This document shows, one piece after another, positions 10,470 through 64,000 of a DNA stretch of 64,000 nt. Origin of the DNA: Haplodiscus bocki (taxonomy: Eukaryota); contig OZ296648.1 in NCBI GenBank assembly GCA_965655095.1, forward strand, positions 8,556,001 to 8,620,000, written 5' to 3'. Within the stretch, counting starts at the first letter, position 1. Every line of letters starts with the position of its first letter. Made by a program: the position numbers and the translations under genes. Below the pieces are notes generated by a model. The model was not told the DNA's origin. It was given only the letters and a program-made list of their open reading frames with translations, and made no database searches.

Positions 10470-10855
10470 AGATGGTGATAGATGACATAGATTCAATTGG
10501 AAGCGGATAGGGTGAAAATACACTAGACGCTATTGGTAGCTGGATGATATAGCTGATTTTGGAACCGGGAGAATATAAATTTAATTGGAATCGTGATGAT
10601 ACAGATTTCATTGGATGCTGAATTTGATGGACGATATTGGAAATAGGATAATATGAGGATATTGGGCTTGGTTATGGTGGATGATATTGGAAGCGGGTTA
10701 ATATAGATTTAATCGGAAGCAGGATAAGATATGCTTATTGGAAGCAAGATAATATAGATGTAATTGGAAACGGGACATTGTGGATGAAGTTTGGAAGCGG
10801 TATATAATCGATAATATTAGAAGTAGGATGTGATGGATGGAATTAGAACGAGATC
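10470..10855 (+). repeat. Degenerate ~26-bp minisatellite (consensus approx. ttggaagcnggataatatagatntaa), ~14 copies
   Basis: ttggaa-like anchors at ~10496, 10533, 10559, 10585, 10611, 10637, 10662, 10687, 10713, 10738, 10764, 10791, 10817 and 10843. Confidence 0.88.
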
Positions 10856-10984
10856 GTGCTGTGTTTTGCAGAATTGCAAAATGCAGATGTGATAAAAAAC
10901 TGTCGCATTACAAGTAACGCCTAACGTTGATTAATTAAAGTGAACATTGTTAATTAGTGCTAATCTTTTTGCGCGGCGGAATAA

Positions 10985-11570
10985 TAATGCAAGAAATATA
11001 GAAAGCTGGTGGAATAAATGAACAGTTGGGATTCCACAGATATCCAGCTATAGAATCCTCTACACAATCAGTACCCGAATCAAAATCTAGTTGTACTAAA
11101 TGATTAAACAAAGTATACTCTGTAATGATTATCTTGAGACTGATAAGTTTTATGTCGAAAAAATCAAAGGTGTGCTAAATGTGAAGAATGAGCTTTAAAA
11201 ATTGTAAAGTGGTCTATTTGTGAGAAATAATTGTTGAAGAATTTTTCAACAATTCTTATTTATTATTCTTCTTAAATCGTTCTATTTTAACAATAAGAAA
11301 ACAATACATAATACAGCAACTGTGTGAATAGATTCACTAGTATATGCATCCTGTGGAGACGAAAAAACTAATAGAACCTGAATTGTAGGTCGTTTTGTAG
11401 GAAAACCTATCATATGCTGAGTAATTTACTACTAGCACCCGAATGTCGAAACTTAAAAATAATAGCTCGATGTTCCCAACAGTATCCTGGCAACTGTGTT
11501 GTTGAACAAAATGCATTTTCAATTGATGAATGGAAGTTTATGTTGCTCTTTTTGATAGTACGTTACATTC
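10985..11570 (+). pseudogene. Possible remnant of a Polinton/adintovirus-associated coiled-coil/membrane protein (unit 1; present in all units)
   Basis: Frameshifted pieces MxEIQKAGGINEQLGFHRYP..SILRL, MSKLKNNSS and EQNAFSIDEWKFML resemble, from memory, a Polinton-linked family with LYP..RL..SKLN..D..IS.EEF motifs. Heavily decayed; weak call. Confidence 0.3.
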
Positions 11571-11574
11571 TAAG

Positions 11575-11706
11575 CGCAGTTACATTGTTTCATCTCGGGA
11601 TGAAACAGATGAAAAGTTGAAACAAATTTCTATCCAAGACGGAACAATTTTACTTCCAGGATGAAACAAAAGACAGAACAAGATGAAAAAAAAAGATGGA
11701 ACAAAC
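11575..11706. repeat. Cluster of GATGAAACA-like subterminal repeats with a hairpin; probable 3' terminus of the DUF6729-like transposon (all units)
   Basis: tgtttcatc-tcgg-gatgaaaca forms a 9-bp stem (perfect in units 2-5, e.g. 19455-19476). It is followed by ~7 gatgaaac/gacggaac/gatggaac variants, directly beyond the 3' end of the minus-strand ORF. Confidence 0.55.
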
Positions 11707-13225: not shown

Positions 13226-13230
13226 CAGCT

Positions 13231-13498: not shown

Positions 13499-13579
13499 TG
13501 TATAAAAAACGAATAAATTTTACCCCTTCGACGCAACTTTTTTTTGGTCATGAAATGAAAGAAACCGTTCAGGTCTTTT

Positions 13580-15400: not shown

Positions 15401-15404
15401 TTTT

Positions 15405-26913: not shown

Positions 26914-29900
26914 ATTAGAACGAGTTCGTGGTGTCTTTTGAAGACTTGCAAAATGCAGATTTGATAAAAACCTGTCACATTACAAGTAATGCTTGACGTT
27001 TAATACTTAAAATGAACGTTTTAAATTAGTAATAACCTTTTTGCGCGGCCGAATAATAATGGAAGAAATACAAAAAGCTGGTGGAATAAATGAACAATTG
27101 GGATTCCACAGATATCCAGCTATAGACTCCGCTACAGAATCAGTACCCGGATCAAAATCTAGTTGTACTAAATGATTAGACAATGTATACACTGTACTGA
27201 GTATCTTGAGACTGATAAGTTTTATATCAAAAAAATATAATGTATGCTAATTGTGAAGAATGAGCTTTAAAAAATGTAAAGTGTGCTTTTTGTGAGAAAT
27301 AATTTTTGGAAAGATCTTTCGCAATTCTTATTTATTGTTCTTATTAAATCATTCTAATTTAACAATAAGAAAACAATACATATTACAGCAACTGTGTTAA
27401 TAGATTTTTCACTAATATCTGCATCCTGTGGAGACGAAAATATTAATAGAACCTGAACTGTAGGTCGTTTTGTAGTAAAACATATCATATGCTGAGTAAT
27501 TTACTACTAGCACCCGAATGTGGAAACTTAAAATTAATAGCTCGATGTCCCCAACAGTATCCTGGCAACTGTGTTGTTGAACAAATTGCATTTTCAATTG
27601 ATGAATGGAAGTTTATGTTGTTCTTTTTGATAATATGTTACGTTCTAAGCGCAGTTTCACTGTTTCATCTCGGGATGAAACAGATGAAAAGTTGAAACAA
27701 AATTCTATCCAAGACGAAACAATTTTACTTCCAAGATGAAACAAAAGACAAAACAAGATGAAAAAAAAAGATGGAACAAACTTAGCTCATGATTAAAAAT
27801 CCCTGGGGTTAACTGTATTTTCTGCGAGTGTTTGTATCAGTTCTTGAGTGTTGATGCTGTCCAGAACGTCTTGGGTGTTGAACTGGAAGCCACTGAATCC
27901 TTCGGCTGGGGTGGGTTCTGTGCTCAAAGGACTGCTGGGCTGTCGACTGTACGGAGTACGGTCAATTGCTTCCTTTCCTGTTTTCGAGCTTCAAAAAACT
28001 CTTTTTGTGCTTGAATTCAATCCTCCTGGGCAATACTTGGGTTGGTTTTGGGGCAAAATCTTTTTCCACGGTTTTGCGTACGACCAGGGTCTGTAGCTGG
28101 GCCTCGACAACCAGAACAACTGTATTTCCGCATCTTTTTCTGACTGGTTTGAACCCCAGAGGCAGCTGCTTCGAGGGACTTTTTCATCCTCCCTTGTGTT
28201 GTTTTCAATCCAGCCGACGTTCTTCGAAGTTTTGCGTGACCGGTTGTATCTATTGGCTCTTCGAATACAAGAGATGTCGTTGCGCAAATTTCGGTCTGGG
28301 CGGAGGAAGAGCTGATGATGAGCATGGTTTCTCGATGGCTGGTAGAGGCTGTCTACTGATTAGAGTTGAAATTTCTTCCTCTCGAGACATGTTGAACCAC
28401 AAGTGAACAGTGCGTAAGTTGACGTTAATCAAAGAGGAAAACTCTTGGAGGGTCACTGTGGTCTTGGTCGGAGATATTTCTGCGGGAGATGGCAAAAAAT
28501 GGCTTCGGTATTGCGTTTTTTCCAAACAGATTGTTCTGAAAATCCAGCACTCACGAAGCCCCCGTTGATTTTGTTCGACTCCAGTGTGCCCCGGCCGGCG
28601 AGCACCGAAACGTGATTTTGTTAATGGTTTGAATTGTTGCCCATATGACACTGCTTTCTTGTCCAGCTCTTGCAATACTTCATAAAGCTTGACAATGTTT
28701 TCAATTTCACTTTCATTGTAATTTAGTCGAGTTTTTCCTACTTCCAGTAGGTTTTTGGCCAGTTTTTCCTTTTTATCCCAACCAGAAACGCCCTGCTGGT
28801 CTGGCCGCCAAAAAGCTTCATCATCAGAGGAATATCTTCCTCCGCTGCATTTTTTCGAGAGAAATATCGTTACTGCTTCTGTATCCAAATTGTTGATAGA
28901 GGGTCCTGGTTGCTGAATCAATTCCAGGTAGTCCATCTTTTCTTCCACCTGGTTTTGATCAAAATGCTCCAAGACAGTTTGTTTGTACTCGCTGATTGGT
29001 TGTAGTAGCTTGGTTACATAATTAAGAATAAATAAGGTTGAAATGGAAGCACTGCCTTGCTTTTCTTGTGTAATCATCCGTGAGGTCACTACTTTGGAAT
29101 GATTTTCTAGCTACCTGCCTTGACAGGGCTGAAGTAAATCAGAACGTGTCCCCTTCCCTCTCATTTGTTTCCCTTTTTCCGCCGTTGTCAACGAAGATCT
29201 TCCCCCTGCCTTCCATCTGCAATTGAACCATTCTTCACTCGAGGAAGACATGATTTTATTGAAAGTTAATTTTTGAGTCAACGTTATTGTCAATTATGGC
29301 TTACCATGAGAGACAACAGTAGTATTCTTTTTTTATTGAACGAACTGCTAAAACACCAGAGTTGTTATAATGATGTAGCAATTTTTGCTTTGAGCCATGA
29401 AGTGTTGAAAGCTTTGTGTAGAGAAGCATGGAAAGCGAAACATAACTATCTTATGATTGATAGTTTAGATGACGGAGAAGATTAATGTATAAAAAACGAA
29501 TAAATTTTACCCCTTTGACGCAACTTTTTTTTGGTCATGAAATGAAAGAAACCGTTCAGGGTTGTTGGTCTTTTACGGGTAGTAAACACTTATAGTGTTC
29601 TGTAGTTACAGAACCATACTCTTGAAGCTTGTCTGCTACAGCTGCACTTTCCCCACTATGTGGGAAGAATAATTTCCCCTAATTTTTTCATTGTCATTGT
29701 AGTTGATCAACTAATTCATAAGGTTGTGTTCAGGTAAGTAGAGATAAACTGTGTTGCAGTTTTGGTGCGCAACCTTTCACCTTCCATTCTTCAATTTCAA
29801 TCTCTAACTTCTAGACCTTTAATCAATTTGCATCTCTCATGTTTATCATCTCCATGTTTCTGATCGTATTCGAAATCCTTATAAAATTTTTTTTTTTATT

Positions 29901-32900
29901 GAAATGTTTTTTTTCGATATTTTTTTATAAACTGTTTTGGGTCAAAAGTAAGCAAGTTGTAACTCCAGTAATTTTTGAAAAAGTACCTTTCTGAAATATT
30001 CTATTTGAAGCTTTGGTATTTTTTGGTAATTTAATTTTTACTACCTTTCGATCTTGGTGATTGATGCAAAATTTGAAAAAAATCACTTGCATTTTTGTCA
30101 GTCAGTAAATTGGAAGCAATAGGTGCGAACAATACCATTATCCTTTACATCTGATTCAATCAATTCATTGAGAATTTCTATTTTCCTCAGATAATCTATC
30201 ATATACTTCTATTCCTTTTTGAATGCTTTCTAGATTTTTCATTTCCAGGTGTAAATGCTTTTGATATATCCGCAGCTGCTTTTTTCCTGTTTAATCGATG
30301 GTTCAACTTCTCGTTCCCTATTATAGTACTAACTTTTTCCACTCCGTTTTCCCCCCCAATAATTGCTTGGAATTGTTTTCTTAGATTGTTGAAGTTTCCT
30401 CTAAAATCTTCCCCAGTGTTGGTTGTGAACATTTCTGTTCCTCTATTTAATCTAATGAAATAATGAATTTTACCATAACGTCATCCTTCCCCTTGATGAA
30501 TAGGTTTTAAAACGAAAAGAGCAGTTGCAGTTATGGCTTAAAAATTCCTTGTTGGCACAGCAGATGATATATCAGCAGCAATTGCTAAGACCCTAGAACT
30601 ATTTTTTAGCCATTTGACTACCAATATTTTTCACTGGTTTAGCAGTTGATTTGCCAATCGACTTTCGAAAAATTACCCAACCCTTCTGCTGCTATAGTAT
30701 GTTGAGATAAAGTCCTAGTTTTATTTCTACCTACAACACTGTTGCCTCGCAATAATTTTATCTACTTACCAGTCTTCTTATTATACCTCTCTTGTCTAAT
30801 ATTAGTTTTTCCTGCATGGTTTTTCCCGCCTTGGCATAAGGAATTAGTTTCTAGTTTTTGATAACTGTTCATTTACAATTTGGAGTTTTTCCAACTGACA
30901 ATAATGAAATTAGGGTTTTCTGAATTTTTTAACCTGTATTTATGTTGAAATTTCTCCAATGAAATGAACTGGATTATGATCATCATCTATGTAGAATTTA
31001 TTGTCGTTAAGTGGCTCTTATTACGTTATACAGAATTGATGAGCTTTCTTTAGGAATTTTCAAACCTGGCGTTGCAATAAGACTAAAGGGTTATAAAAAT
31101 CTCTCACGAACTCCATTTACAAATGATCCATCGAAACAGGTCCATTTCAGATAGATTTTGCCGATGGTAGATCTTTTTATAGGTTTTTCACCTAATGGTG
31201 CTCCAGCTGCGTGTTTTGTTTCTGTAAAGACTACCACCTTATGAACTGTGAATTGAAAATTTTATGTCGTGAGGGGTTGTTAGAATTGTTTCTATAGTTT
31301 TTTCAACAGGCCTAGTTCCTTCTTCCTTCAAGACAATTTTGACATTCGCTGACTCATACATATACCAGTACCAGGTAGCATCCCGTAAGTGGAATCGAAC
31401 TGTCATCGACAGCTGCAATTTCCATGTATTCATTTTTATTTTCCTTGATCTTCTCTCGATGCTCCAAAACAGTCAGTTGTTCTGCTTTTGGTGAGCACAA
31501 TTTGTGTTTTTTGTAGATCAGGAACAGGGTCTTACGAGTCAACAAAGTTGCAGTTTCAGGGTTGGTTTAATAATCTCATGATTGTAGCTTTGTCGCTATC
31601 TTGAAATAGTCGTTTTTTGAGAAGCGTTGATACAGTTGCACCATCGAAATCAATCTTCCGAGCTTATTCCGACCAAGAGAATTGAAATTGAATCAGTAGG
31701 TACGCTGAATTCCACGTTGGTGTTCCGTGAGGACATGAAAGCTGCTCTGGGTTGCCATTGCTGATTACCAAAATGCCTCTAATTGGCAAAGTGGACTCAT
31801 TGATGTATCGGAAAACTGAATCCATAACGGACCATAGCTCACTGCTAATCAAACCGGTCTCTTCTACAAGTACTGCGTCAACCTCTTTCAGGACAGCGAG
31901 TTGAATGCGTTGCCTGAAAAGCTTGCAGATTGTCCGTTCAGCATTTTCTGCGAGGAACCGCGGTCAGTAAGTGGCATAGCCATTAGGCAATGTATGAGTT
32001 CCTCCAAGGTGCTGCCTTCGCTGCTGACAGTGTTCTGATTACACAACCCACTTCAGGTCTTTCGAGAAAGCGTATGTGAGAGCATTCAATGAGGCCGTGG
32101 GTTTGTCTGTTCCGGGACATCCGAGAGCAAAAACGTGGGGAACGAATGCTTTGGTTTCAGCCAAATATGCGTTAAGAGCATCTATGAACATTGCGAGGAA
32201 TCTCTGTTGCTGTTCAGATGACTGGTTTGCTCGCTTTGATGTTTGGTTCATTTTATGCCTGAAAGGGTGAGGACTCTGTGTACCGTCAACACATTTCCAA
32301 AAATAATTGCCTATATAACGTATGTATTTCTGAATCGTTTTAATGTATGCATTAATTCATTTAAATGGTGTTTAATAATCAAGATTTGGTAAATGAAAGG
32401 CATCATCAAGTGTTTCCTCAAGTGGTGATCGAAGTGGGCAGTTTTTTGGACACTTAGCGTTGAGAACGTTAGGAACTAGCTATTCAGAATAAACATTCTT
32501 GTTAGCGCGAGCTGATATTCGTGTCCACCGTAAACTTTGTTCACTCCAGTCATCTGTCTCTTCCACAGCTATCGTTTGCTCAAATACAATTTTTAACTTA
32601 ATCGTCTGTCTTGGTCGACGTATTTGTACTTGGCCTCGTAACCGAATTTAAATTTCTGATTGGTTTCTTTGTTGGCGATTTTATTCTATAGGCTGACGAC
32701 AGTGATATAAACTGAAAAGTCAAGAGGTAGAGGACCTGCTGGAGCTGATCAGAAATTGAGTAAAACGCCGCCGCTTGTCCCGTTGTTGCTGTTGGGATCA
32801 TTGATGATATCCTTTTGGTAAATAAATAATTTGTTCTGTGGGACCTCGCCTTCATTTGGCATCTGTGAAGGTTTTCACACCTAAGCAGGTGCTGCCGCCT

Positions 32901-33823
32901 GGTTGAGTTCAGTACGACCAGTGGTAAGCCTGACTAGCTCAGGGAATCTTTCTCCCGATTTTATTTCCAGACTACCTTTCGTTGATTGACGACAGTTTTT
33001 TCACCTAGAATCTGGAGTTTTTCGTCTTGGGATACTTCTCAAAGTTCGACCTATGAAAATGACCTGATCTTTGTTTGCTGCCTTTTTGACCTGCTTCAGC
33101 ATTTTTTCAGCAACGAAGGACGCCTGCGACTCGCCGATTTTTTTTTGCTTCTGCGATCAGCTGATGAATGTTCTAATGAAGAAGGTATTTAGAAAAAAGG
33201 GATTGGCGGAGTTCTTCGGACTTTCCGAAATAAATTGCACCATTTTTCAGTCTCACAGCAAACTTCAATATATACAATTTTATTCATACAAGAAGGTTTT
33301 AACTACAATGTTTACGGTACTACGCTACATGTTATTTGGTTGAGAGCATTCATTGAATTATTTGATTTTCACGTCACGATAACGAAGCGAACCTCGACTG
33401 TCGGCTGAGATCGAAAGTGCAAGCGGATCATGAGATATACCAATGTTAAGGACAAAATTCGATGCAGCGTGAAGTTCTGAAAAGAAAACGCGACAAAATT
33501 AGAAGAGTTATATTGTAACCAACTGATTTCTTCCCTAAAACTTCCAGAAAAGGCGCCTTAGTGCATGCCGGCTGTGAATAACGCCAGTAGCCGAGTATTC
33601 TGACTTTTTTTGGAAAAAAATTGAGTTAAAGTAAGTAACTATCAAGATTGTTGCTGGAAGACAGATTCAAATGAGTTAACGGCTTTCAGCAGCATTTCAA
33701 TCATTCGAGTCGTTCTGGCAGTACGAGCTAATTGACAGAAGGGCGGTTTAGAAAAATTGGCGCTTTACTCGTTTTCCTGAAATTAAATTAGACATTATCA
33801 ATACAGCAGGCATGGGTGAAGAT
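26914..33823. repeat. Macrosatellite unit 3 (6,910 bp)
   Basis: Anchor-to-anchor distance; ~2-kb deletion at ~32408 and ~0.1-kb deletion at ~28463. Confidence 0.93.
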
Positions 33824-40837: not shown

Positions 40838-43800
40838 ATTAGAACGAGTTCGTGGTGTCTTTTGAAGACTTGCAAAATGCAGATTTGATAAAAACCTGTC
40901 ACATTACAAGTAATGCTTGACGTTTAATACTTAAAATGAACGTTTTAAATTAGTAATAACCTTTTTGAGCGGCCGAATAATAATGGAAGAAATACAAAAA
41001 GCTGGTGGAATAAATGAACAATTGGGATTCCACAGATATCCAGCTATAGACTCCGCTACAGAATCAGTACCCGGATCAAAATCTAGTTGTACTAAATGAT
41101 TAGACAATGTATACACTGTACTGAGTATCTTGAGACTGATAAGTTTTATATCAAAAAAGTATAACGTATGCTAATTGTGAAGAATGAGCTTTAAAAAATG
41201 CAAAGTGTGCTTTTTGTGAGAAATAATTTTTGGAAAGATCTTTCGCAATTCTTATTTATTGTTCTTATTAAATCATTCTAATTTAACAATAAGAAAACAA
41301 TACATATTACAGCAACTGTGTTAATAGATTTTTCACTAATATCTGCATCCTGTGGAGACGAAAATATTAATAGAACCTGAACTGTAGGTCGTTTTGTAGT
41401 AAAACACATCATATGCTGAGTAATTTACTACTAGCACCCGAATGTGGAAACTTAAAAATAATAGCTCGATGTCCCCAACAGTATCCTGGCAACTGTGTTG
41501 TTGAACAAATTGCATTTTCAATTGATGAATGGAAGTTTATGTTGTTCTTTTTGATAATATGTTACGTTCTAAGCGCAGTTTCACTGTTTCATCTCGGGAT
41601 GAAACAGATGAAAAGTTGAAACAAAATTCTATCCAAGACGAAACAATTTTACTTCCAAGATGAAACAAAAGACAAAACAAGATGAAAAAAAAAAGATGGA
41701 ACAAACTTAGCTCATGATTAAAAATCACTGGGGTTAACTGTATTTTCTGCGAGTGTTTGTATTAGTTCTTGAGTGTTGATGCTGTCCAGAACGTCTTGGG
41801 TGTTGAACTGGAAGCCACTGAATCCTTCGGTTGGGGTGGATTCTGTGCTCAAAGGACTGCCGGGCTGTCGACTGTACGGAGTACGGTCAATTGCTTCCTT
41901 TCCTGTTTTCGAGCTTCAAAAAACTCTTTTTGTGCTTGAATTCAATCCTCCTGGGCAATACTTGGGTTGGTTTTGGGGCAAAATCTTTTTCCACGGTTTT
42001 GCGTACGACCAGGGTCTGTAGCTGGGCCTCGACAACCAGAACAACTGTATTTCCGCATCTTTTTCTGACTGGTTTGAACCCCAGAGGCAGCTGCTTCGAG
42101 GGACTTTTTCATCCTCCCTTGTGTTGTCTTCAATCCAGCCGACGTTCTTCGAAGTTTTGCGTGACCGGTTGTATCTATTGGCTCTTCGAATACAAGAGGT
42201 GTCGTTGCGCAAATTTCGGTCTGGGCGGAGGAAGAGCTGATGATGAGCATGGTTTCTCGATGGCTGGTAGAGGCTGGCTACTGATTAGAGTTGAAATTTC
42301 TTCCTCTCGAGACATGTCGTTGAACCACAAGTGAACAGTGCGTAAGTTGACGTTAATCAAAGAGAAATTTCCTTGGAGGGTCACTCTGTTCTTGACACGA
42401 TGTCGAATGGCCTCATGGTCATTGAGCATTAGCTTGTAGCGTGACGTATACTCGCCTTTGCTGGGCGCCAATTTCTGCATTGGTCGGAGATATTTCTGCG
42501 AAGGATGGCAGAAAAAAGGCTTCGGTATTGCGATATTTCTGAACATATTGTGCTGGAAATCCAGCACGCATGAAGCCCCCGTCGATTTTGTTCGACTCCA
42601 ATGTGCCCCGACCGGCGAGCACCGAAACGTGATTTTGTGAATGGTTTGAGTTGTCGCCCATATGACACTGCTTTCTTGTCCAACTCTTGCAATTCTTCAT
42701 AAAGCTCAACAATGTTTTCAACTTCACTTTCATTGTACTTTAGTCGAGTTTTTCCTATTTCCAGTAGGTTTTTGGCCAGTTTTTCCACTTTATCCCAACC
42801 AGCAACGCCCTGCCGGTCTGGACGTCAAAAAGCATCATCAGAGGAATATCTTCCTCTCCGCTGCATGATTTCGAGAGAAATATCGTTACTGCTTCTGTAT
42901 ACAAATTGTTGATCGAGGGTCCTGGTTGCTGAATCAATTCCAGATAGTCCATCTTTTCTTCCACCTGGATATGGTCAAAATGCTCCAAGGCCGTTTGTTT
43001 GTACTCGCTGATTGGCTGTAGTAGCTTGGTTACATAATTGAGAATTAATAAGGTTGAAATGGAAGCACTGCCTCGCTTTTCTTGTGTAGTCATACGTGGC
43101 GTCACTAATTTGGAATGATTTTCTCGCTAGCTGCCTTGACGGGGCTGAATTAAATAAGAACGTGTCCCCTTCCCTCTCATTTGTTTCCCTTTTTCCGCCG
43201 TTGTCAACGAAGATCTTCCCCCTGCCTTCCATCTGCAATTGAACCATTCTTCACTCGAGGAAGACATGATTTTATTGAAAGTTAATTTTTGAGTCAACGT
43301 TATTGTCAATTATGGCTTACCATGAGAGACAACAGTAGTATTCTTTTTTTATTGATTGAACTGCTAAAACACCAGAGTTGTTATAATGATATAGCAATTT
43401 TTGCTTTGAGCTATGAAGTGTTCAAAGCTTTGCGTAAAGAAGCATGGAAAGCGAAACATAACTATCCTATGATTGATAGTTTAGATGACGGAGAAGATTA
43501 ATGTATATAAAACGAATATAAAATTTTACTCCCTTGACGCAACATTTTTAGCTCATGAAGTGGAAGAATCAGTTTAGGACTGTTGGTCTTGTGGGGTTGT
43601 AAACACTTATGTTGTTCTGTAGTTATACAACCATACTCTTGAAGGTTATCTGCTATTGCTACACTTTCTCAACTATGTTGGAAGAATAATTTCCCCGAAT
43701 TTCTTTTTTGTCATTGTAGTCAATCAGCTAATTCATAAGGATCTGTTGAAATGAAGATAAATTGTGTTGCAGTTTTCGTACGCAACCTTTCGCCTTCTAT

Positions 43801-44924
43801 TCTTCAAATTCAATCTCGAACTTCTAGAGCTTTAATCAATTTGCATCTCTCAGGTTTTTCTTCATGTTTCTGATCGTATTCGAAATCCTTATAAAATTAT
43901 TTTATTGAATGTTTTTTTCGATATTTTTTATAAACTGTTTTGGGTCAAGTGTACGGAAGTTGGCTCTCCAGTAGATTTTGAAAAGTACCTTTCTCAAATG
44001 TTTTATTTGAAGCTTTGGTATTTTTTGGTAATTTAATTTTTACTGCCTTTGGTTCATGGTGATTGATGCTAAATTTGAAACAATTCACTTGGATGTTTGT
44101 CAGTCAGTAAATTGGAAATCATAGGTTCGAACAATACCAGTATCCACTACATCTGATTTGAATAATTCAATGAGAATTTCAGTTTTCCTCTGAGATAATC
44201 TCTCATATCCTTCTATTCCTTTTTGAATGCTTTCTAGATTATTCAATTCCAGGTGTTATTGCTTTTGATTTATCCTCAGCTGCTTTTTTTCCTGTTTAAT
44301 CGATGGTTCATCTTCTCGTTCCCTATTCTAGTACTATTTTTTTCCACTCAGTTTTTCCCCAATAATCGCTTGGAATTGTTTTCTTAGATTGTTGAAGTTT
44401 CCTCTAAAATCTTCCCCAGTGTTGGTTGTGAACATTTCTGTTCCTCTATTTAATCTAATGAAATAATGAATTTTACCATAACGTCATCCTTCCCCTTGAT
44501 GAATAGGTTTTGAAACGAAAAGTGCAATTGCAGTTATGGCTTAAAAATTCCTTGCTGGCACAGCAGATGATATATCAGCAGCAATTGCTATTACCCTAGA
44601 ATTTTTTTTAGCTATTTGAATACCAATATTTTTCACTGGTTTAGCAGTTAATTTGCCAATCGACATTCGAAAAATTACCCAACCCTTCTGTTGCTATAGT
44701 ATGTTGAGATAAAGTCCTAGTTTTGTTTCTACCTACAACACTGTTGCCTCGCAATATTTTTATCTACTTACCAGTCTTCTTATTATACCTCTCTGGTGTA
44801 ATAATAGTTTTTCCTGCATGGTTTTTCCCGCCATGGCACAAGGATTTAGTTTCTAATTTTTGATAACTATTTATTTACAATTTGGAGTTTTTCCAACTGA
44901 CAATAATGAAATTAGGGTTTTCTG

Positions 44925-45410
44925 TATTTTTTTAACCTATATTTATGTTGAAATTTCTCCAATGAAATGAACTGGATTATGATCATCATCTAAGTAGAAT
45001 GTATTGTCGTTAAGTGACTTTTATTACGTTATACAGAATTAATGTGGTTTCTTCTCGAATTTTCAAACCTGGCGTTGCAATAAGACTAAAGGGTTTCAAA
45101 AATCTCTCACGAAATTCTTTTACAAATAATCCATCGAAACAGTTGCTTTTCAGATAGATTTTGTTGATGGTAGATCTTTTTAAAGGTTTTTCACCTATTG
45201 GTGCTCCAGCTGCGTGTTTTGATTCTGTAAAAGCTACCACCTTATGAACTGTGAATTGAAAATTTTATGTCGTGAGGGGTTGTTAGAATTGTTTCTTTAG
45301 TTTTTTCAACAGCCCTAATTCCTTCTTCCTTCAAGACAATTTTGACATTCACTGACTCCTTTATATACCAGTACGAGGTAGCATCCGGTAAGTGGAATCG
45401 AACTTTCATC
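44925..45410 (-). pseudogene. Best-preserved penton fragment (unit 5)
   Basis: ORF 45010-45240: ..GEKPLKRSTINKIYLKSNCFDGLFVKEFRERFLKPFSLIATPGLKIREETTLILY; after a frameshift, TFYLDDDHNPVHFIGE. Confidence 0.8.
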
Positions 45411-46329
45411 GACAGCTGCAATTTCCATGTGTTCAATTTTATTTTCCTTCATCTTTTCTGGATGCTCCAAAACAGTCAGTTGTACTGCTTTTGGTGCGCA
45501 CAATTCGTGTTTTTTGTAGATCAGGAACAGGGTCTTACGAATCAACAAAGTTGCAGTTTCAGGGATGGTTTATTAATCAGATGATTGTAGCCTTGTCACT
45601 ATCTAGAAATGGTCGTTTGTTGAGGAGAGTTGAAACAGTTGCACCATCGAAATCAATCGTCCGAGCTTATTCCGACAAATAGAATTGATATTGAATCAGT
45701 AGGTACGCTGAAAGCCACGTTGGTGTTCCGTGAGGACATGAAAGATGCCTTGGGTTGCCATTGCTGATTACCAGAATGCCTCTCATCGGCAAGGTGGACC
45801 CATTGATGTATCGGAAAACTGAATCCATAACGGACCATAGCTCACTTCTAATCAAACCGGTCTCTTCCACAAGTACTGCGTCAACCTCTTTCAGGACAGC
45901 GAGTTGAATGCGTTGCCTGAAAAGCTTGCAGATTGTCCTTTCAGCATTTTCTGCGAGGAACCGCGGTCAGTAAGTGGCATAGCCATTAGGCAATGTATGA
46001 GTTCCTCCAAGGTGCTGCCTTCGCTGCTGACAGTGTTCTGATTACACAACCCACTTCAAGTCTTTCGAGAAAGCGTATGTGAGAGCATTCAATGAGGCCG
46101 TGGGTTTGTCTGTTCCGGGACATCCGAGAGCAAAAACGTGGGGAGCGAATGCTTTGGTTTCAGCCAAATATGCGTTAACAGCATCTATGAATATTGCTAG
46201 GAGTCTCTGTTGCTGTTTAAATGACTGGTTTGACTGCTTCGGTGCTTGGTTCATCTTATGCCTGACAGAAAGAGGTTTCTGTGTACTGTCAACACAGTTC
46301 CAATATTATTTGCCTATATAACGTATCTA

Positions 46330-49300
46330 TTTCTGAATCGTTTTAATATATGCATTAGTTTGTTTGGTGTTTAGTACTCAAGATTTGGTAAATGAAAGGC
46401 ATCATCCTCACGGTTTGGATGAGGAATGTGTATTCCGCTTCACTATTTATTAGCCAGACATGTTTTCACAGATGATGTTTTCACATTCGCAGATGATATT
46501 CAGGTGTATATGATCTTTCTTAAGTTTTTGTGACGAGACAAGCCCGTTGACGAAGACAACTTCTGGCCCAAAAATTGTATGGGACCCATTCTACCGGACG
46601 GAATTTCACCAGTGCCATTGAACTGTCAGCCATCACGGAGTGATTTTTGTTGCTGCCTTCCCGGAAGGCGTTGCGTAGTATGAAGGAGTACTTCAAGAAT
46701 TTCTTGTTTCAGCTCTTTTTCGGAAGAAAGCTCGTTTTTCCGAGGTGAGACGCAACCACAGAGCAATCTCGTTGTCATTAAAAAGAGGTTTGTTGACGGC
46801 TCTCGAATAAATCCAAGCAGCCTATGCTGATAAGAAGCAGTCTCGCCCTTTCGTGATTTATAATATCAAAATGGGTCTCCTTACTGTCGCCCGAAAATAG
46901 CTTGCGTTCCGACATGTTTTCAGGATTGAGGGGAGCCACCTTGTTCAAAATCAGGTATAATAGCTACGGAAAGAAAGAGGGACTACGTATTACGGGTGGA
47001 ACGAAAAATCATTTTGCGCAGGTGAAAAAAGCAACTGTGCAGCGACAGCACGCAACTGGATAACCGTGTCCTGTACGCGGTGGCCGCCAAGGCGTAGGGC
47101 ACAATGTTTTAAAGTGGAAAATAGCAAAAATGCTTTCTTTTAGCCTAAAAACATTAGTTTCTGGGGAACTAAGAAAGATAGCGTCAAGGGGTCCCGACTT
47201 TAGTGAACTATGGAGAAATGGTTATCACTTTGGGGTTTTTTCCAGAAACATCTACCTGCCAAAACCTAATCTCCCTCTTGCTCAAATTGTGGCCGATTTT
47301 CCTCAATTTTGGCGAGATTTCTTTCTACACTAATTTTACAGAAAACTGTTGGCGAAGTTTTCGCTGTCTTTCCGTCCAGAAATAGGGTTTCAATCTTTGA
47401 AAACACCGCCATCTTTAAATACACACTTGGCGCAGTCTATCGGTTTTTGTTGGCTTTATCAACCTTTGGTCAATAGACTGTCGTGACCTGCCCTTTTTCT
47501 ACCGACCTATATATTAAGATGGAACTATTTTCTCTCCATGCTTTGAGTCGTCCTCATGGCGACTCTGATTTTGGATAAATTTTGCGCTGAGCGTCCAACT
47601 GTACTTGATTCAAATTGTATGAGATCTAAAGTTTGACTCATCCATCTCGAAATGCAGAGTAACTGCGTGTTCCGGTCGAAGTAACGTTTGCAATTTTAGT
47701 GAGAACTTTAATCAGAAATTGCCGGCTAATCACTAAAACCAGCAATAAAAATGTCTCCGCAGCTGCGAGCGCACGCTACTGCCAAGGAACAATGGACTAC
47801 GACACCCTCTATAATTCTGGGGTGACTAGTTCTAAGAATAACAATCACCAAAATATATTAGGAAGAGTCCGTAACGCCGACAACTGCGCGAATGACACTC
47901 CGGTCTGACTCTGCGGCGAACAGAAAAACGGGAACGAACGAAAAGAACAAAGGGATCCAGAGTGGCTAGCTGAGAGAGGTGCTCTGAGATTGAGAGAAAA
48001 GTGTTGCTTCAAGTGGTGATCGAAGTGGGCAGCTTTTTGGACACTTAGCGTTGAGAACGTTAGGAAATAGCCATTCAGATTAAACATTCTTGTTAGCGCG
48101 AGCTGATATTCGTGCCCACCGTAAACCTCTGTTCAGTCATCTGTCTCTTCCACAGCTATTGTTTGCTCAAATATATTTTGTAACTTAATCGTCTGTCTTG
48201 GTCCACGTATTTGTACTTGGCCTTTCGTAACCGAATTTAAATTTCTGATTGGTTTCTTTGTTGGCGATTTTATTCTATAGGCTGACGACAGTGATATGAA
48301 CTGAAAAGTCAAGGCGATAGAGGACCTGCTCGAGCAGATCGGAAGTTCAGAAAAACGCCGCTGCTTATCCCGCTGTTGCTGTTGGGGTCATTGATGATAT
48401 CCTTTTGGTAAATTTTTAATTTTTCTGTGGGAACTCGCCTTCTTTTTTCATCTGTGAAGGTTTTCAAACCTAAGCAGGTGCTGCCTCCTGGTTGAGTTTA
48501 GTACGACCAGTGGTAAGCTTGACTAGCTCAGAGAAACTTTCTCCCAATTTTTTTTCCAGACTCCAGACTACCTTTCGTTGATTGACGACAGTTTTTTCAC
48601 CAAGAATCTGGAGTTTTTCGTCTTGGGATACTTCTCAAAGTTCGCCCTATGAAATTGACTTGATCTTTGTTTGCTGCCTTTTTGACCTGCTTCAGCATTT
48701 TTTGAGAAACAAAGGACGCCTGCAACACGCGGTTGTTTTTTTGTTTCGCCGATGTGCTGAGGGATGTTCTCATAAAGAAGTTCTTTAGAAACAAGGGATT
48801 GGCGGACTTTCTGAAATAAATTGCACCATTTTTCAGTCTCACAGCAAACTTCAATAGATACAAGTTTATTCATACAAGAAGGTTTTAACTACAATGCTGA
48901 GAGTACTACGCTACATGTTATACGGTTGAGAGCATTCATTGAATTATTCGATTTTTACGTGACGATAACGAAGCGAACCTCGACTGTCGCCTGAGATCGG
49001 AAGTGCAAGCGGATCATAAGATATACCAATGTTATGGACAAAATTCGATGCAGCGTGAAGTTCTGAAAAGGAAACGCGACAAAATTAGAGGAGTTATATT
49101 GTAACCAACTGATTCCTTCCCCAAAGCTTCCAGAAAAGGCGCTTTAGTGCATGCCGGCTGTGAATAACGCCAGTAGCCGAGTATTCTGACTTTTTCGGAA
49201 AAAAATTGACTTAAAATAAGGAACTATCAATATTGCTGCTGGAAGGCAGATTCAAATGAGTTAACGGCTTTCAGCAGCAATTCAATCATTCGAGTCGTTC

Positions 49301-49390
49301 TGGCAGTACGAGCTAATTGAAAGAAGGGCGGTTTAGAACAATTGGCGCTTTACTCGTCTTCCTGAAATTAAATTAGACATTATCAAAACA
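46330..49390. other. Unassigned, deletion-polymorphic portion of the repeat unit (degraded coding-like sequence)
   Basis: Conserved between copies and slightly more GC-rich, with broken reading frames. I recognised no family. Confidence 0.4.
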
Positions 49391-49408
49391 GCAGGCAAGG
49401 GTGAAGAT

Positions 49409-52400
49409 ATTAGAACGAGATCGTGGTGTGTTTTGCAGACTTGCAAAATGCAGATTTGATAAAAACGTGTCGCATTACAAGTAACGCTTGACGTTGATTA
49501 CTTAAAATGAACTTTTTTAATTAGTAATAACCTTTTTGCGCGGCCTAATGATAATGGAAGAAATACAAAAAAGCTGGTGGAATAAATGAACAGTTCGGAT
49601 TCCACAGATATCCGGCTATAAACTCAGCTACAGAATCAGTACCCGGATCAAAATCTAGTTGTACTAAATGATTAAACAATGTATACACTGTACTGAGTAT
49701 CTTGAGACTGATAAATTTTATATCAAAAAATATAAGGTAAGCTAAGTGTGAAGAATGAGCTTTAAAAAATGTAAAGTGTGCTATTTGTGAGAAATATTTG
49801 TTGGCGACATCATTCGCAATTCTTATTTATTATTCTTATTAAATCATTCTAATTTAACAATAAGATAACAACAAATATTACAGCAACTGTGTTAATAGAT
49901 TTTTCACTAATATCTGCATCCTGTGGAGACGAAAAAATTATTAGAACCTGAACTGTAGTTCGTTTTGTAGTAAAACCTATCATGGGCTGAGTAATTTACT
50001 ACTGGCACCCGAATGTCGAAACTTAAAAATAATAGCTCGATGTCCCCAACAGAATCCCGGCAACTGTGTTGTTGAACAAAATGCATTTTCAATTGATGGA
50101 TGGAAGTTTATGTTGTTCTTTTTGATAGTATGTTATGTTCTAAGCGCAGTTGCAGTGTTTCATCTCGGGATCAAACAGATGAAAAGTTGACACAAATTTC
50201 TATCCAAGACGGAACAATTTTACTTCCAGGATGAAACAAAAGACAAAACAAGATGAAAAAAAAAGATGGAACAAACTTAGCTCATGATTAAAAATCCTTG
50301 GGGTTAATTGTATTTTCTGCGAGTGTTTGTTAGTTTTTGAGTGTTGATGCTGTCCAGAACGTCTTGGGTGTTGAACTGGAAACCACTGAATCCTTCGACT
50401 GGGGCGAATTCTGTGCTCGGTGGTGCCTGGACTACCGGGTTGGTGACTGTACGAAGTGCGGTCAATTGCTTCCTTTCCTGTTTCCGATTTTCAATATGCT
50501 CTTTTTGTGCTTTAACTCATTCCTCCTGGGCAATGTTTGGGTTGGTTTTGGGGCAAAAATCTTTTCCTCGGTTTTGCGTATGACCAGGGTCTGTAGCTAG
50601 GCCTCGACCAGACCAACTGTATTTCTGCATCTTTCTTTGACTGGCTTCAACCCCAGCAGCTGCTGCTTCGAAGGACTTTTTCATCCTCCATTGTGTTGTT
50701 TTCAATCCAGCGGACGTTCATCGAGGCTTTGCGTGACCGGTTGCATCTATTGGCTCTTCGAATACAAGAGGTGTCGTTGCGCAAACTTCGGTCTGGGCGG
50801 AGGAAGAGCTGATGATGAGGAGCATGATTTCTCGATGGCTGGTAGAGGCTGGCTACTGATTAGAGTTGAAATTTCTTCCTCTCGAGACTTGTCTTTGAAC
50901 CATGTGTGAGTAGTCCGTAAGTTGACGTTAATCAAAGAGAAAATTCCTTGGAGGGTCACTGTGTTCTTGACCCGATGTCGAATGGCCTCATGGTCATTGA
51001 GCATTAGCTTGTAACGCGAAGTATACTCGCTTTTGCTGGGCGTCAATTTCTGCATTGGTCGGAGATATTTCTGCAAGAGATGGCAAAAAAATGGCTTCGG
51101 TATTGCGTTTTTCCAAACAGATTGTTCTGAAAATCCAGCGCTCACGAAGTCCCCGTCGATTTTGTTCGACTCCAATGTGCCCCGACCGGCGAGCACCGAA
51201 ACGTGATTGTTAATGGTTTGAATTGTTGCCCATATGACACTGCTTTCTTGTCCAGCTCTTGCAATTCTTCATAAAGCTTGACAATGTTTTCAATTTCACT
51301 TTCATTGTAATTTAGTCGAGTTTTTCCTACTTCCAGTAGGTTTTTGGCCAGTTTTTCTTTTTTATCCCAACCAGCAACGCCCCTCTGGTCTGGCCGGCAA
51401 CAAGCTTCATCATCGGAGGATTGTCTTTCTGTCCGCTGCATTTTTTCGAGAGAAATATCGTTACTGCTTCTGTATCCAAATTGTTGTTAGAGGGTCCTGG
51501 TTGCTAAATCAATTCCAGGTAGTCCATCTTTTCTTCCACCTAGATATGGTCAAAATGCTCCGAAGCCGTTTGTTTGTACTCGCTGATTGCTTGTAGTAAG
51601 CTGGTTACATAATTAAGAATGAATAAGTTTGAAATGGAAGCACTGCCTCGCTTTTCTTGTATAACCATCCGTGGCGTCACTAATTTTGAATGATTTTCTA
51701 GCTAGCTGCTTTGACAGGGCTGAACTGAATCAGAACGTGTCCCCTTCCCTCTCCTTTGTTTCCTTTTTTCCGCCGTTGACAACGTAGATCTTCCCCTTGC
51801 CTTCCATCTGCAATTGAACCATTCTTCACTCGAGGAAGACATGAATTTATTGAAAGTTACTTTTTGAGTCAACGTTATTTTAAGTTATCGCCTATCATAA
51901 GAGACAACAGTTGTATTCTTTTTTTATTGAACGAACTGCTAAAACACCAGAGTTGTTATAATGATAGAGCAATTTTTGCTTCGAGCCATGAAGTGTTCAA
52001 AGCTTTGTGTAGAGCAGCATGGAAAGCGAAACATAACTATCCTGCGATTGACAGTTTAGATGACGGAGAAGATTAATGTATATTTATCGAATATAAAATT
52101 TTACCCCTTTGACGCAACATTTTTAGCTCATGAAGTGAAAGAATCAGTTTAGGACTGTTGGTCTTGTGAGGGTTGTAAACACTTATGTTGTTCTGTAGTT
52201 ATACAACCATACTCTTGAAGGTTATCTGCTATTGCTACACTTTCTCAACTATGTTGGAAGAATAATTTCCCCTAGTTTCTTTGTCATTGTAGTCAATCAG
52301 CTAATTCATAAGGATCTGTTGAAATAAAGATAACTTGTGTTGCAGTTTTCGTACGCAACCTTTCACCTTCTATTCTTCAAATTCAATCTCTAACTTCTAT

Positions 52401-59300: not shown

Positions 59301-62300
59301 AAATTCAATCTCTAACTTCCAGAGCTTTAATCAATTTGCATCTCTCAGGTTTTTCATCTCCATGTTTCTGGTCGTATTCGAAATCCTTATAAAATTATTT
59401 TATTGAACTTTTTTTCGATATTTTTGATAAACTATTTTGGGTCAAAAGTAATCAAGTTGATGCTCCAGTAGATTTTGAAAAGTACCTTTCTCAAATGTTT
59501 TATTTGAAGCTTTTGTTATTTTTTGGTAATTTATTTTTTACTACCTTTGGTTCATGGTGATTGATGCCCGATTTGAAACATTCCACTTGGATTTTTGTCA
59601 GTCAGTAAATTGGAAACAATAGGTTCGAACTATACCAGTATCCACTACATATGATTTAATTAATTCATTGAGAGTTTCTGTTTTCCTCTGAGCTAATCTA
59701 TCATATCCTTCTATTCCATTTTGAATGATTGAGAGATTTTTTCAAATCCAGGTGTTATTGCTTTTCCTATGTCCTCAGCTGCTTTTTTCCTGTTTAATCG
59801 ATGGTTCAACTTCTCGTTCCCTATTGTAGTACTAACTTTTGCCACTCAGTTTTTCCCCAATACTTGTTTGGAATTGTTTCCTAGATTTTTTAGGTTTCCT
59901 CTAAAATCTTCCCCAGTGTTGATTGTGAACATTTCTCTTCTGTTTAATCTAACGAATTGAAAGAAGTTTACCATAACATCATCCTTCCTCTTGATGAATA
60001 GGTTTTAAAAGGAAAAGAGCAGTTGCAGTTATGGCTTAAAGATTTCTTGGTGGCACAGCAGATGATATATCAGCAGCAATTGCTAAGACCCTAGAACTAT
60101 TTTTTAGCCATTTGACTACCAATATTTTTCACTGGTTTAGCAGTTGATTTGCCAATCGACTTTCGAAAAATTACCCAACCCTTCTGCTGCTATAGTATGT
60201 TGAGATAAAGTCCTAGTTTTATTTCTACCTACAACGCTGTTGCCTCGCAATATTTTTATCTACTTACCAGTCTTCTTATTATACCTCTCTTGTGTAATAT
60301 TAGTTTTTCCTGCATGGTTTTTCCCGCCATGGCATAAGGAATTAGTTTCTAGTTTTTGATAACTGTTCATTTACAATTTGGAGTTTTTCCAACTGACAAT
60401 AATGAAATTAGGGTTTTCTGAATTTTTTAACCTGTATTTATGTTGAAATTTCTCCAATGAAATGAACTGGATTATGATCATCATCTGAGTAGAATGTATT
60501 GTCGTTAAGTGGCTCTTATTACGTTATACAGAATTGATGAGCTTTCTTTAGGAATTTTCAAACCTGGCGTTCCAATAAGACTAAAGGGTTATAAAAATCT
60601 CTCACGAAATCCATTTACAAATGATCCATCGAAACAGTTACATTTCAGATAGATTTTGCCGATGGTCGATCTTTTTATAGGTTTTTCACACCTAATGGTG
60701 CTCCAGCTGCGTGTTTTGTTTCTGTAAAGACTACCACCTTATGAACTGTGAATTGAAAATTTTATGTCGTGAGGGGTTGTTAGAATTGTTTCTATAGTTT
60801 TTTCAACAGGCCTAGTTCCTTCTTCCTTCAAGACAATTGTGACATTCGCTGACTCATACATATACCAGTACCAGGTAGCATCCCGTAAGTGGAATCGAAC
60901 TGTCATCGACAGCTGCAATTTCCATGTATTCATTTTTATTTTCCTTGATCTTCTCTCGATGCTCGAAAACAGTCAGTTGTTCTGCTTTTGGTGCGCACAA
61001 TTCGTGTTTTTTTGTAGATCAGGAACAGGGTCTTACGAATCAACAAAGTTGCAGTTTCAGGGATGGTTTAATAATCTGATGATTGTAGCCCTGTCACTAT
61101 CTAGAAATGGTCTTTTGTTGAGGAGAGTTGAAACAGTTGCACCATCGAAATCAATCGTCGAGCTTATTCCGACAAATAGAAATGATATTGAATCAGTAGG
61201 TACTGGCAAAGTGGACTCATTGATGTATCGGAAAACTGAATCCATAACGGACGATAGCTCACTGCTAATCAAACCGGTCTCTTCCACAAGTACTGCGTCA
61301 ACCTTTTTCAGGAGAGCGAGTTGAATGCGTTGCCTGAAAAGCTTGCAGATTGTCCGTTCAGCAATTCTCTGCGAGAGGAGCCGCGGTCAGTAAGTGGCAT
61401 AGCCACTAGGCAATGTTTGACTTCCTCCAAGGTGCTGCTTTCGCTGCTGACTGTTCTGATTACACGACACAATTCAGGTCTTTCACGAAAACATATGTGA
61501 GAGTATTCAATGAAGCCGTGGGTTTGTCTGTTCCGGGATATCCGAGAGCAAAATTGTGGAAAACGAATGCTTCGGTTTAACCCAAACTTGCGTTAACAGC
61601 ATCTATGAACATTGCGAGGAATCTCTGTTGCTGTTCAGATGACTGGTTTGCCCGCTTTGATATATGGTTCATTTTATGCCTGAAAGGGTGAGGACTCTGT
61701 ACCGTCAACACAATTCCAAAAATAATTGCCTATATAACGTATCTATTTCAGAATCGTTTTAATATATGCATTAATTCAATTAAATGGTGTTTAATATTCA
61801 AGATTTGGTAAATGAAAGGCATCATCCTCACGATTAGGATGAGGAAGGTGCATTCCGTTTCCATATTTTTTAGCCATACAAGTTTTCTTTCGCAGATGAT
61901 ATTCAGGTGTTTATGATCTTTCTTAAATTTTAGTGATGAGACAAGCCCGTTGACAAAGACAACTTCCTGGCCCAAATAGTCTATGGGACCCATTATACCG
62001 GACCAAGTTTTACCAGTGCCATTGAATGTCAGCCATCACGGAGTGATTTTTGTTGCTGCCTTCACAGACGGCGTTGCGTAGTACGAAGGAGTACTTGAAG
62101 AATTTCTTGCGTCAGCCCTTTTTCGGAAGAAAGCTCGTTTTTGCGAGGTGAGACGCAACCACAGAGCAATCTTGTTGTGATTAAAAAGGTTTGTTGACGG
62201 CTCTCGAGTATTTCCCGGGAGCCTATGCTGATAAAAAGCAGTCTCGGCCTTTCGTGATTATTAATATCAAAATTGGTCTCTTTGCCGTCCCCAAAAGTAG

Positions 62301-64000
62301 CTTGCGTTCCGACATGTTTTCAGGGTTAAGGGGAGCCACCTTGTTCAAAGTCAGGTATAATAGCTACGGAAACAAAGAGGGACTACGTATTACGGGTCGA
62401 ACGAAAAATCAACTTGCGCAGGTGAAAAAAAGCAACTGTACAGAAACAGCACGCAACTGGATAACCGTGTCCTGTACGCGGTGGCCGCCAAGGCGTAGGG
62501 CACAATGTTTTAAAGTGGAATTTAGCAAAAATGCTTCCTTTTAGCCTAAAAACATTAGTTTCTCGGGAACTAAGAAAGATAGTGTCAAGGTGTCTCCACT
62601 TTAGTAAACTAGTGAGAAATGGTTATCTGTTTGGGGTTTTCTCCAGAAACATCTACATTTCAAAACCTAATCTCCCTCTGGCTCAAAATGTGCCCGATTT
62701 TCCTCAGTTTTGGCGTGATTGCTTTCCAGACTATTAATACAGAAAGCTGTTGGCGAAGTTTTCGCTGTCTTTCCGTCCAGAAATAGGGTTTCGAAATTGG
62801 TCAAATCCCTTAACGAATAACGGTAGAACCCCTACCTGCAAGAACCTGTTCCCCTTGCTCAAAAATGGCCCGATTTGGCTCACATTTGGCTTGATTGTTC
62901 TGAAGACTTTCATACACAAATTTATGAACCAAATTTAGATTATCTTTTTCCAATAGTGCTATTTCAGGTTGTAAAGTTCAAGATATTGGTATATACGCAA
63001 TTTTCGGCGTACTTTCCTCACTTTTACCTCATCTAGCCATCGAAAGGGAATGGATGAACGCTATTTTACTCATAAGGAGGTATTTGAAACTCTCTGATCA
63101 GAAGATAGACCAATTTTGAGACCTTTTATACCCTCCAACCCAAGATGCCCCTTCCATCTTCAAACCTATTTTCCTTCATGTAGAGGATCCGTAACGTGGT
63201 CGGCACCGGAATCTTTAAATACACCCTTGGTGCAGTCTATCAGTTTATGTTAGTTTTTATGATCCTTTGGTCAATAGACTGTCGTGACCTGCCCTTTTTC
63301 TACCGACCTATATATTAAGATGGAACTATTTTCTCTCCATGCTTTGAGTCATCCTCATCGCGACTCTGATTTTGGATAAATTTTGCGCTGAGCGTCCAAC
63401 TGTACTTGATTCAAATTGTATGAGATCTAAAGTTTGACTCATCCATGTCGAAATGCAGAGTAACTGCGTGTTCCGCTCGAAGTAACGTTTGCAATTTTAG
63501 TGAGAACTTTAATCAGAAATTGCCGGCTTATCACTAAAACCAGCAATAAAAATGTCTCCGCAGCTGCGAGCGCACGCTACTGCCAAGGAACAATGGACTA
63601 CGACACCCTCTTTAATTCTGGGGTGACTAGTTCTAAGAATAACAATCACCAAAATGTTTTAGCAAGAGTCCGTAACGCCAACAACTGCGCGAATGACACT
63701 CCGGTCTGACTCTGCGGCGAACAGAAAAACGGGAACGAACGAAAAGAACAAAGGGATCCAGAGTGGCTAGCTGAGAGAGGTGCTCTGAGATTGAGAGAAA
63801 AGTGTTGCTTCAAGTGGTGATCGAAGTGGGCAGCTTTTTGGACACTTAGCGTTGAGAACGTTAGTAACTAGCCATTCAGATTAAACATTCTTGTTAGCGC
63901 GAGCTGATGTTCGAGCCCACCGTAATCCTCTGTTCGGTAATTTGTCTCTTCCACAGCTATTGTCTGCTCAATTATAATTTAACGTAATCGTGTGTCTTTG
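56322..64000. repeat. Macrosatellite unit 7 (incomplete, >7.6 kb; closest to the undeleted ~9-kb form)
   Basis: Contains all variable segments in order up to the window end. Confidence 0.9.

Follow-up and report, generated by a model that had tools for sequence, protein, structure and literature searches.

Extent and composition of the array

The window analysed here is a stretch of 64,000 nucleotides from Haplodiscus bocki (contig OZ296648.1, below C1, C1:8556001-8620000, in a genome of 1.5 Gb), and most of it is occupied by a tandem array whose repeat unit, or monomer, is pieced together from several mobile elements. Positions are given in window coordinates unless marked as C1. Self-comparison showed direct repeats from 10842 through the end of the window, and this in-window part (10842-64000, no strand assigned) contains six complete periods and the greater part of another, which start, by a common landmark, at 10900, 18769, 26972, 33882, 40896, 49467 and 56380. 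Comparison of the neighbouring stretches placed the true end of the array at C1:8636124, 16.1 kb beyond the window, with period boundaries at 65274, 71984 and 79988. The whole array is thus 69.3 kb long and contains nine whole periods, copies 1-9, of 7869, 8203, 6910, 7014, 8571, 6913, 8894, 6710 and 8004 bp, with pairwise identities of 88.9-98.8%. An initial annotation, made from the window's letters, had described a macrosatellite of more than 53 kb with at least seven head-to-tail copies, which this result confirms and extends. The tandem array is real in the assembly and confined to a single locus: when 2 kb of the unit were used as a query, long matches fell inside the array only, and no further unit copies were found within 110 kb to its left or 64 kb to its right. 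Rfam gave no match in the window at the gathering score.

By share of length, the monomer consists of a slice of a Polinton (31.5%), part of a long terminal repeat (LTR) that we call LTR-A (23%), a Dada-U6 transposon (19%), unique DNA (11%) and a piece of a Helitron (10%); the remaining part is 140 bp from a second LTR family, LTR-B. All parts of the unit except 936 bp and 243 bp were assigned to separate dispersed families. The longer of these two (39960-40895 in copy 4, no strand assigned) has no match beyond the array, as 10/10 search candidates lay inside it, and is present in all nine periods. The monomer is a nested graveyard of mobile-element fragments. The initial annotation had read it as a virion module, but less than a third of it is Polinton DNA, the major capsid gene is missing, the ATPase gene is split and the penton gene is cut. 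That reading had also overlooked the two LTR pieces, the unique stretch, the Dada-U6 identity of the transposon and its position inside the ATPase. What it had right was a Polinton relic inside a tandem array whose copies exchange sequence. It had further placed every gene in each copy, which does not hold: copy 8 has lost 2.1 kb, including most viral segments, and one of the Polinton genes was matched in five copies of nine.

A slice of a Polinton

A direct Pfam scan of the six frames of one period (40400-49600, with X at stops) recovered no Polinton family, and its lone match, YkyA, was dismissed as chance-level. The genes were therefore identified through relatives in the same genome. A frame of 71 amino acids from the ATPase piece (29270-29482) gave 5358 first-look candidates, of which 150 were scored, and many of these lay in open frames of 240-260 amino acids. 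One such relative frame matches Pox_A32 (E 1.2e-5) and adjoins a double jelly-roll gene and an rve integrase. Fourteen profiles were built from the natural frames of 23 loci of the genome, plus 25 penton proteins, and the reversed array, used as a decoy, gave 0 matches for 14/14 of them.

The profiles recovered four decayed genes, described here by their positions in copy 5. The ATPase is in two halves on the plus strand. Its N-terminal half (within 41035-41572, residues about 48-118) was matched in 4/9 copies (1, 3, 4 and 7; E 8e-4 to 2.5e-3; an example is the match at 34375-34521), and the DNA of this region also matches a dispersed Polinton, locus L039, with E 7e-5. Its C-terminal half (43232-43522, residues 131-228, with stops inside) was matched in 8/9 copies with E from 1e-29 to 6e-10. 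The other three genes lie on the minus strand: a gene for 287 amino acids that belongs to a conserved family (43603-44357; 5/9 copies), a gene for 137 amino acids broken into two frames (44469-44868; 8/9 copies), and the 3' part of the penton, a minor capsid gene (45016-45261; 8/9 copies, best E per copy 9e-6 to 4e-12), of which about the first 70% is missing, so that only residues 258-355 of 356 are covered. The initial annotation had expected the ATPase and the penton to be recoverable by profile search, as they were, and a further Polinton gene, which it had also listed, was confirmed. The product of the 137-amino-acid gene is basic with a cysteine pair, its amphipathic helix is borderline (19/300 shuffles equal it), and DUF5679, which the initial annotation had named for checking, was not recovered in two natural copies of the gene. 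An early idea of a 177-amino-acid gene or a penton left of the ATPase was dropped, with 0 profile matches there.

The fold of the penton family was modelled from a natural member of 356 amino acids with an alignment of 150 sequences, which gave pLDDT 66 and pTM 0.49. An earlier model from 25 close relatives was unusable (pLDDT 32), and a sequence search against solved structures returned 0 matches. The best PDB match of the final model was the mavirus penton, 6g41 (E 4.8e-4, probability 0.96), lower-ranked PDB matches were adenovirus penton bases, and matches among viral models included minor capsids. The family is accordingly modelled as folding like the mavirus penton, at a TM-score of only 0.22.

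Much of a Polinton is absent. Profiles for the major capsid (from 25 pieces), the integrase, three pieces of the polymerase and five other genes gave 0 matches in the array, in line with the initial annotation, which had recognised no pPolB, integrase or major capsid. The double jelly-roll major capsid is present in the dispersed relatives. No protease was matched by Pfam in the six frames of one period, in scans that also missed genes that are present, and none was found among 15 frames of one dispersed Polinton copy. No inverted match that could represent terminal inverted repeats was found in the array with a 20-base seed, and the slice is bordered by LTR-B and Helitron DNA.

In one dispersed subfamily (loci L034, L035, L036 and L046) the major capsid and ATPase genes face the 287-amino-acid gene, the 137-amino-acid gene, the penton and the integrase. 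The four genes of the array keep this order, which argues that the Polinton part is an internal cut-out. The array retains the middle 2.7 kb of such a Polinton, interrupted by stops and frame changes wherever it was aligned, and its DNA is 66-83% identical to that of relatives over short stretches. Polinton remnants also occur in 6/21 flanking windows of 8.5 kb, so their presence in the array needs no special cause.

Two further observations concern Polintons elsewhere in the genome. At least two gene orders exist (L029-L032 and L047-L048 versus L033-L036 and L046), one of them with two penton-like genes in a row. At C1:107817501-107827500 (L041), a small tandem duplication carries the major capsid and ATPase genes twice, about 1.77 kb apart.

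A Dada-U6 transposon inside the ATPase

Between the two ATPase halves lies a Dada-U6 transposon (41573-43228 in copy 5, minus strand) that has been internally deleted, with parent bases 1-224 joined to 2695-4226. It was identified through a frame of 286 amino acids (28253-29110) that matches an unbroken frame on contig C5. The C5 parent (C5:97786572-97790797; L006, L007, L026) has an intronless transposase frame of 1142 amino acids, and the array copy is 83% identical to it. A relative at C4:10753026-10755532 (L008, L009) is 99% identical, is internally deleted and keeps a frame of 577 amino acids. Both of these near-identical parents (2/2) sit in a U6 small nuclear RNA gene with GCGCAA on both sides, and Rfam scores the U6 at C5 with 69.9 bits. 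At 1033 the frame of the C5 parent has a CCHC finger, and at 358, 426, 456 and 615 it has transposase patterns, which we take to be the DDE and DxxH patterns of Dada; the assignment was made by pattern and not by aligning a named Dada protein. Sub-terminal TCTTCTCTG and CAGAGAAGA are found 14 bases from each end, with 8/9 and 7/9 bases; no end-to-end inverted match that would mark terminal inverted repeats was found among the matches listed.

These properties are those of the published family. Insertion in U6 with GCGCAA duplicated is described as the signature of Dada-U6 in the available text of PMC3706591, and the U6 site, the GCGCAA, the motif 14 bases from the ends and the CCHC finger all agree with the parts of PMC3706591 and PMC8869645 at hand. 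The transposase direction is that of U6, as published for Capitella in the same portions. The array copy, which keeps 224 bp at its 5' end and 1.5 kb at its 3' end, is close to Dada-U6N1_DR (231 and 1567 bp) as given there.

DUF6729 was matched in the N-terminal part of the transposase of the intact C5 parent, with E 7.5e-37. The initial annotation had named a DUF6729-like transposon 3' end in the unit; the link to DUF6729 was right for the parent, whereas the array copy no longer has the domain, which has been deleted. These matches point to DUF6729 as a mark of Dada transposases, and a literature search for the term DUF6729 returned no papers.

Unlike the published Dada-U6 elements, as far as the accessible text describes them, the array copy is flanked on either side by DNA that is not U6, and no target duplication is recognisable around it. 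According to the available portion of the 2013 paper, Dada-U6 had never been seen outside U6, and Kojima and Jurka there only speculated that the 9-base motif is a recognition signal (PMC3706591). In the array, a U6-like 9-base motif (CAGAGAAGA) stands in the ATPase flank 14 bases from the insertion, on the same side as in U6. It is made of the conserved FFxRGRH codons of the ATPase (43229-43258 and its equivalents in seven other copies), with 8/9 bases in 2/8 copies and 7/9 bases in 6/8. The chance of the motif at one fixed place is 1.6e-4 for 8/9 bases and 2e-3 for 7/9. The eight array copies of this site count as one event. At the only other non-U6 end compared, from a more decayed copy, just 2/9 bases matched. 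As a single event, the array site appears to mimic the U6 target and fits the proposed recognition motif, and it makes the Dada target rule directly testable. One end of the insertion is found in 9/9 copies and the other in 8/9, and since the insertion is common to the copies, the transposon entered the Polinton before amplification.

Helitron and LTR pieces

The Helitron fragment (45393-46291 in copy 5, minus strand) is an internal piece of a RepHel protein with the PIF1 helicase part only, residues about 1924-2280 of 2577, and the Rep part is missing. Its Pfam matches (E 7.5e-5 and 6.2e-4) are under the curated cut-off. By tblastn it matches a Helitron of the same genome with E 5e-65, which bears out the PIF1 fragment of the initial annotation, and it is 75% identical over 913 bp to the Helitron at C2:76337355-76338260. 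Elsewhere in the genome, Helitron-like clusters with open frames of 2400-2780 amino acids lie at C3:133.75-134.27 Mb, on C23, at C4:110.5-111.1 Mb and at C9:18.8-19.0 Mb. Some clusters are spaced regularly, at 15 or 20 kb, with one pair 99.6% identical over 12 kb, and a Helitron relative carries OTU, Helitron_like_N and PIF1.

The LTR-A piece (46534-48543 in copy 5, plus strand) is the last 2.1 kb of an LTR of 3.1 kb, at 70% identity to intact copies. Its parents are LTR retrotransposons of 17 kb whose LTRs are 14 kb apart. The piece is mostly deleted in copies 3, 4 and 6 through one identical gap of 1997 alignment columns. Young LTR retrotransposons at C1:15.68 Mb and C10:6.77 Mb (L053-L056) have LTRs of 3.1 kb that are 99% alike, and these LTRs contain an antisense frame of 297 amino acids without a Pfam family.

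The LTR-B piece (40896-41034 in copy 5, plus strand) is the first 140 bp of a dispersed, solo-LTR-like element of 2.4-2.5 kb with the ends TGTCGC...GCGACA. Its right edge, base 140 of LTR-B, is the amplification junction. From the last copy of the array, and from no other, the sequence runs on through a whole LTR-B of 2.4 kb into ordinary DNA. Since LTR-B is complete only there, the right end is the original locus. A Helitron identity for the DNA right of the solo LTR was considered and rejected.

At the other end, the array starts 58 bp before an LTR-B piece (10842-10899). The left flank holds a degenerate minisatellite with a 26-bp unit (10490-10850, plus strand), in which the motif ATTRGAW occurs 9 times in 460 bp against a background of 0.2. 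The first base of the array falls on the ninth of these motifs, and the unit has the same motif at that place, a short homology at the left break.

Exchange between copies

The copies have exchanged sequence, as the initial annotation had proposed. In 19/36 pairs of copies the longest identical run of polymorphic sites had p<=0.001 (1000 permutations). Which copies are closest to each other changes from one part of the unit to the next, with tracts of 99-100% identity, and identical gaps are common to copies that are not neighbours (3/4/6, 2/9 and 1/5). The youngest duplication (29141-43100, no strand assigned, right end approximate) comprises two adjacent 7-kb periods, between which 12 substitutions and 3 indels were counted in the 6.9 kb aligned (99.8% identical). 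Mean pairwise divergence is 0.068-0.096 for the four Polinton segments, 0.069 for the Helitron piece and 0.090-0.102 for the other parts (0.090 for the unique stretch, 0.093 for LTR-A, 0.094 for Dada). The Polinton segments thus diverge like the rest of the unit, and there is no sign of the viral DNA being spared. The cut in the penton is common to 8/8 of the copies that retain the gene. Since such breaks are common to the copies, the virus genes were already dead when amplification began.

Origin of the array

We suggest, with a probability of about 0.75, that the array is a composite macrosatellite, in which dead nested elements were tandemly duplicated a single time through non-homologous joining, with unequal crossing-over and conversion thereafter. 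From nesting and divergence, the order of events may have been as follows. An old Polinton would have decayed, and a deleted Dada-U6 would have entered its ATPase at a site resembling the U6 target. Insertions of Helitron and LTR elements, together with deletions, may then have trimmed the Polinton to 2.7 kb. The first tandem pair would have arisen by the joining of base 140 of the solo LTR to Polinton DNA about 9 kb upstream, and unequal exchange could have expanded this pair to at least nine copies. Finally, a deletion ending in the flanking minisatellite may have removed the original left end. The array is most likely neutral, and no function is inferred for its viral part.

Several points weigh against this account. 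The original left end is not present, as the array begins 58 bp before LTR-B, and a search of the 110 kb on that side recovered neither a leftover major-capsid gene nor the missing left portion of the Polinton; with the left end at 58 bp and no remains of unit or capsid over that distance, a later deletion has to be assumed. Read on the minus strand, this left end also has CTAA following a weak hairpin, which is what the 3' end of a Helitron looks like. To the right of the array, at a distance of 5.4 kb, there is a gap of 200 N. In the permutation test polymorphic columns are shuffled, which takes no account of local differences in rate, and 17/36 pairs were above p 0.001. Neutrality, for its part, is argued from sequence alone.

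The left end bears on an explanation by rolling-circle amplification, which the initial annotation had raised in proposing that the unit is cargo of a rolling-circle element. The left edge of the array would then be the 3' end of a non-autonomous Helitron-like element that carried the unit and was served in trans by a RepHel encoded elsewhere in the genome. Canonical Helitron ends are a 5' TC and a 3' hairpin with CTRR. At the left edge, the minus strand has CTAA and then T, 12-17 bases after a stem of 7 bp, a weak look-alike of such a 3' end. The stem is A+T-rich, worth -6 to -7 kcal/mol over 61 bases, and is intact in 5/10 copies and broken in the other 5/10. The CTAA itself belongs to the minisatellite motif of the flank, it is not directly followed by TC, and the left-edge 58 bp had no match in the fetched Helitron loci and none outside the array. 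Neither Helitron end was found at the amplification junction, which lies inside LTR-B, and the PIF1 piece is internal and without a Rep part. The genome does have many long PIF1 frames, often 15-20 kb apart, with one 15-kb tandem at 99.6%, and Helitron arrays are known, at least from the accessible part of PMC12001565. Since Helitron tandems are common here and the left edge has its CTAA, rolling circle keeps some weight, although we consider it unlikely. It is harder still to credit assembly error, in which some or all copies would be mis-joined or falsely duplicated. The youngest pair, 99.8% identical over 6.9 kb, is what two alleles placed in tandem could look like, and switching between near-identical reads can yield mosaic identity. 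Most copies, however, differ by 5-11% and have indels of their own, the array is without any N, and the products of copies 2 and 9, 53 kb apart, are on one public contig of 438,193 bases, although that contig could belong to the same assembly. That the whole array is an artefact is very improbable; the youngest copy is less safe.

Two further explanations give the array a function. As a host archive, an idea also raised in the initial annotation, it would be retained because it supplies small RNAs that target four or five mobile families, with transcription from the plus-strand LTR-A. Most coding pieces are on the minus strand and LTR-A is sense on the plus strand, so that a transcript of this kind would run antisense to the penton, to two more Polinton genes and to the Dada and Helitron pieces, and the copies are still exchanging. 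The ATPase is on the other strand, however, and the orientation argument is based on three independent elements only; three copies are without most of LTR-A and one is without viral genes. The pieces are just 70-83% like their nearest relatives (66-83% over short stretches for the Polinton DNA), and a divergence of 17-30% is poor for the guide pairing of small RNAs. With Polinton remnants also common in the flanks, we regard an archive as very unlikely. The same goes for its boldest form, an LTR-driven antisense cassette that would have sampled Polinton, Dada, Helitron and two LTR families and been amplified, with its copies kept in exchange, to raise the dose of guide RNA against the most abundant virus-like invader, which we find highly improbable. 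A structural or regulatory role at the locus, as a spacer, a heterochromatin block or an enhancer dosage beside an EDEM-like host gene and regardless of the former coding content of the pieces, would draw on the 936-bp unique stretch in all nine periods and on two probable exons of an EDEM-like endoplasmic reticulum mannosidase to the left of the array. The exon at 7324-7410, 3.4 kb from the array, matches EDEM1 (E 5.5e-5), but the next presumed exon (7711-7935) had no match, and divergence in the unique stretch (0.090) is no slower than in the other parts; such a role is hardly to be expected. The composite macrosatellite remains the reading that we favour.

Relation to known elements and arrays

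Human T2T composite repeats, also called macrosatellites or megasatellites, as described in the available text of 10.1101/2021.07.12.451456, contain at least three repeat types in tandem and are ascribed to unequal crossing-over. The present array resembles them in its transposon-bearing, multi-type unit arranged head to tail (theirs are 80-100% identical within arrays). It differs from them, as far as that text goes, in occupying one locus, in being one third Polinton DNA and in having no captured exon that we found. With the Helitron tandem arrays in the accessible part of PMC12001565 it shares a tandem repeat that holds Helitron sequence, and such arrays occur elsewhere in this genome; unlike them, it has only an internal helicase fragment, no Helitron end and a junction inside an LTR.

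In the portions of PMC4028283 and PMC8502044 consulted, Polintons, or Mavericks, and adintoviruses have an A32/FtsK-like ATPase, a penton (PX in the Polinton literature, PMC4028283) and accessory genes; the array has the ATPase, the penton and two accessory genes in its subfamily's order. Unlike the elements described there, it retains a 2.7-kb internal slice without polymerase, integrase, major capsid or ends, carried as a passenger in tandem. Degraded endogenous relics of Polintons and adintoviruses are common in animals by the same partial accounts. No Polinton-bearing composite tandem array was found in the literature searched, which covered titles and the openings of abstracts and few subscription papers. 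Given the high base rate of Polintons, such an array is unsurprising in this genome. It suggests that, where Polintons are abundant, nine tandem copies of dead viral genes can accumulate without serving any function, and it cautions against arguing for viral domestication on copy number only. Specialists may find two other results more useful, the connection between DUF6729 and Dada and an off-target insertion site in agreement with the proposed Dada target rule.

Other features of the left flank

Between the array and the mannosidase exons, the terminal part of a common dispersed repeat (720 first-look candidates) covers 9565-10060; it occurs back to back in inverted orientation at locus L094. 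Farther left, 3983-6432 is a MULE-type element with inverted repeats of 112 bp (75%) built of 15-bp units, and it contains an open frame of 298 amino acids with FLYWCH and MULE domains on the minus strand (5253-6149).

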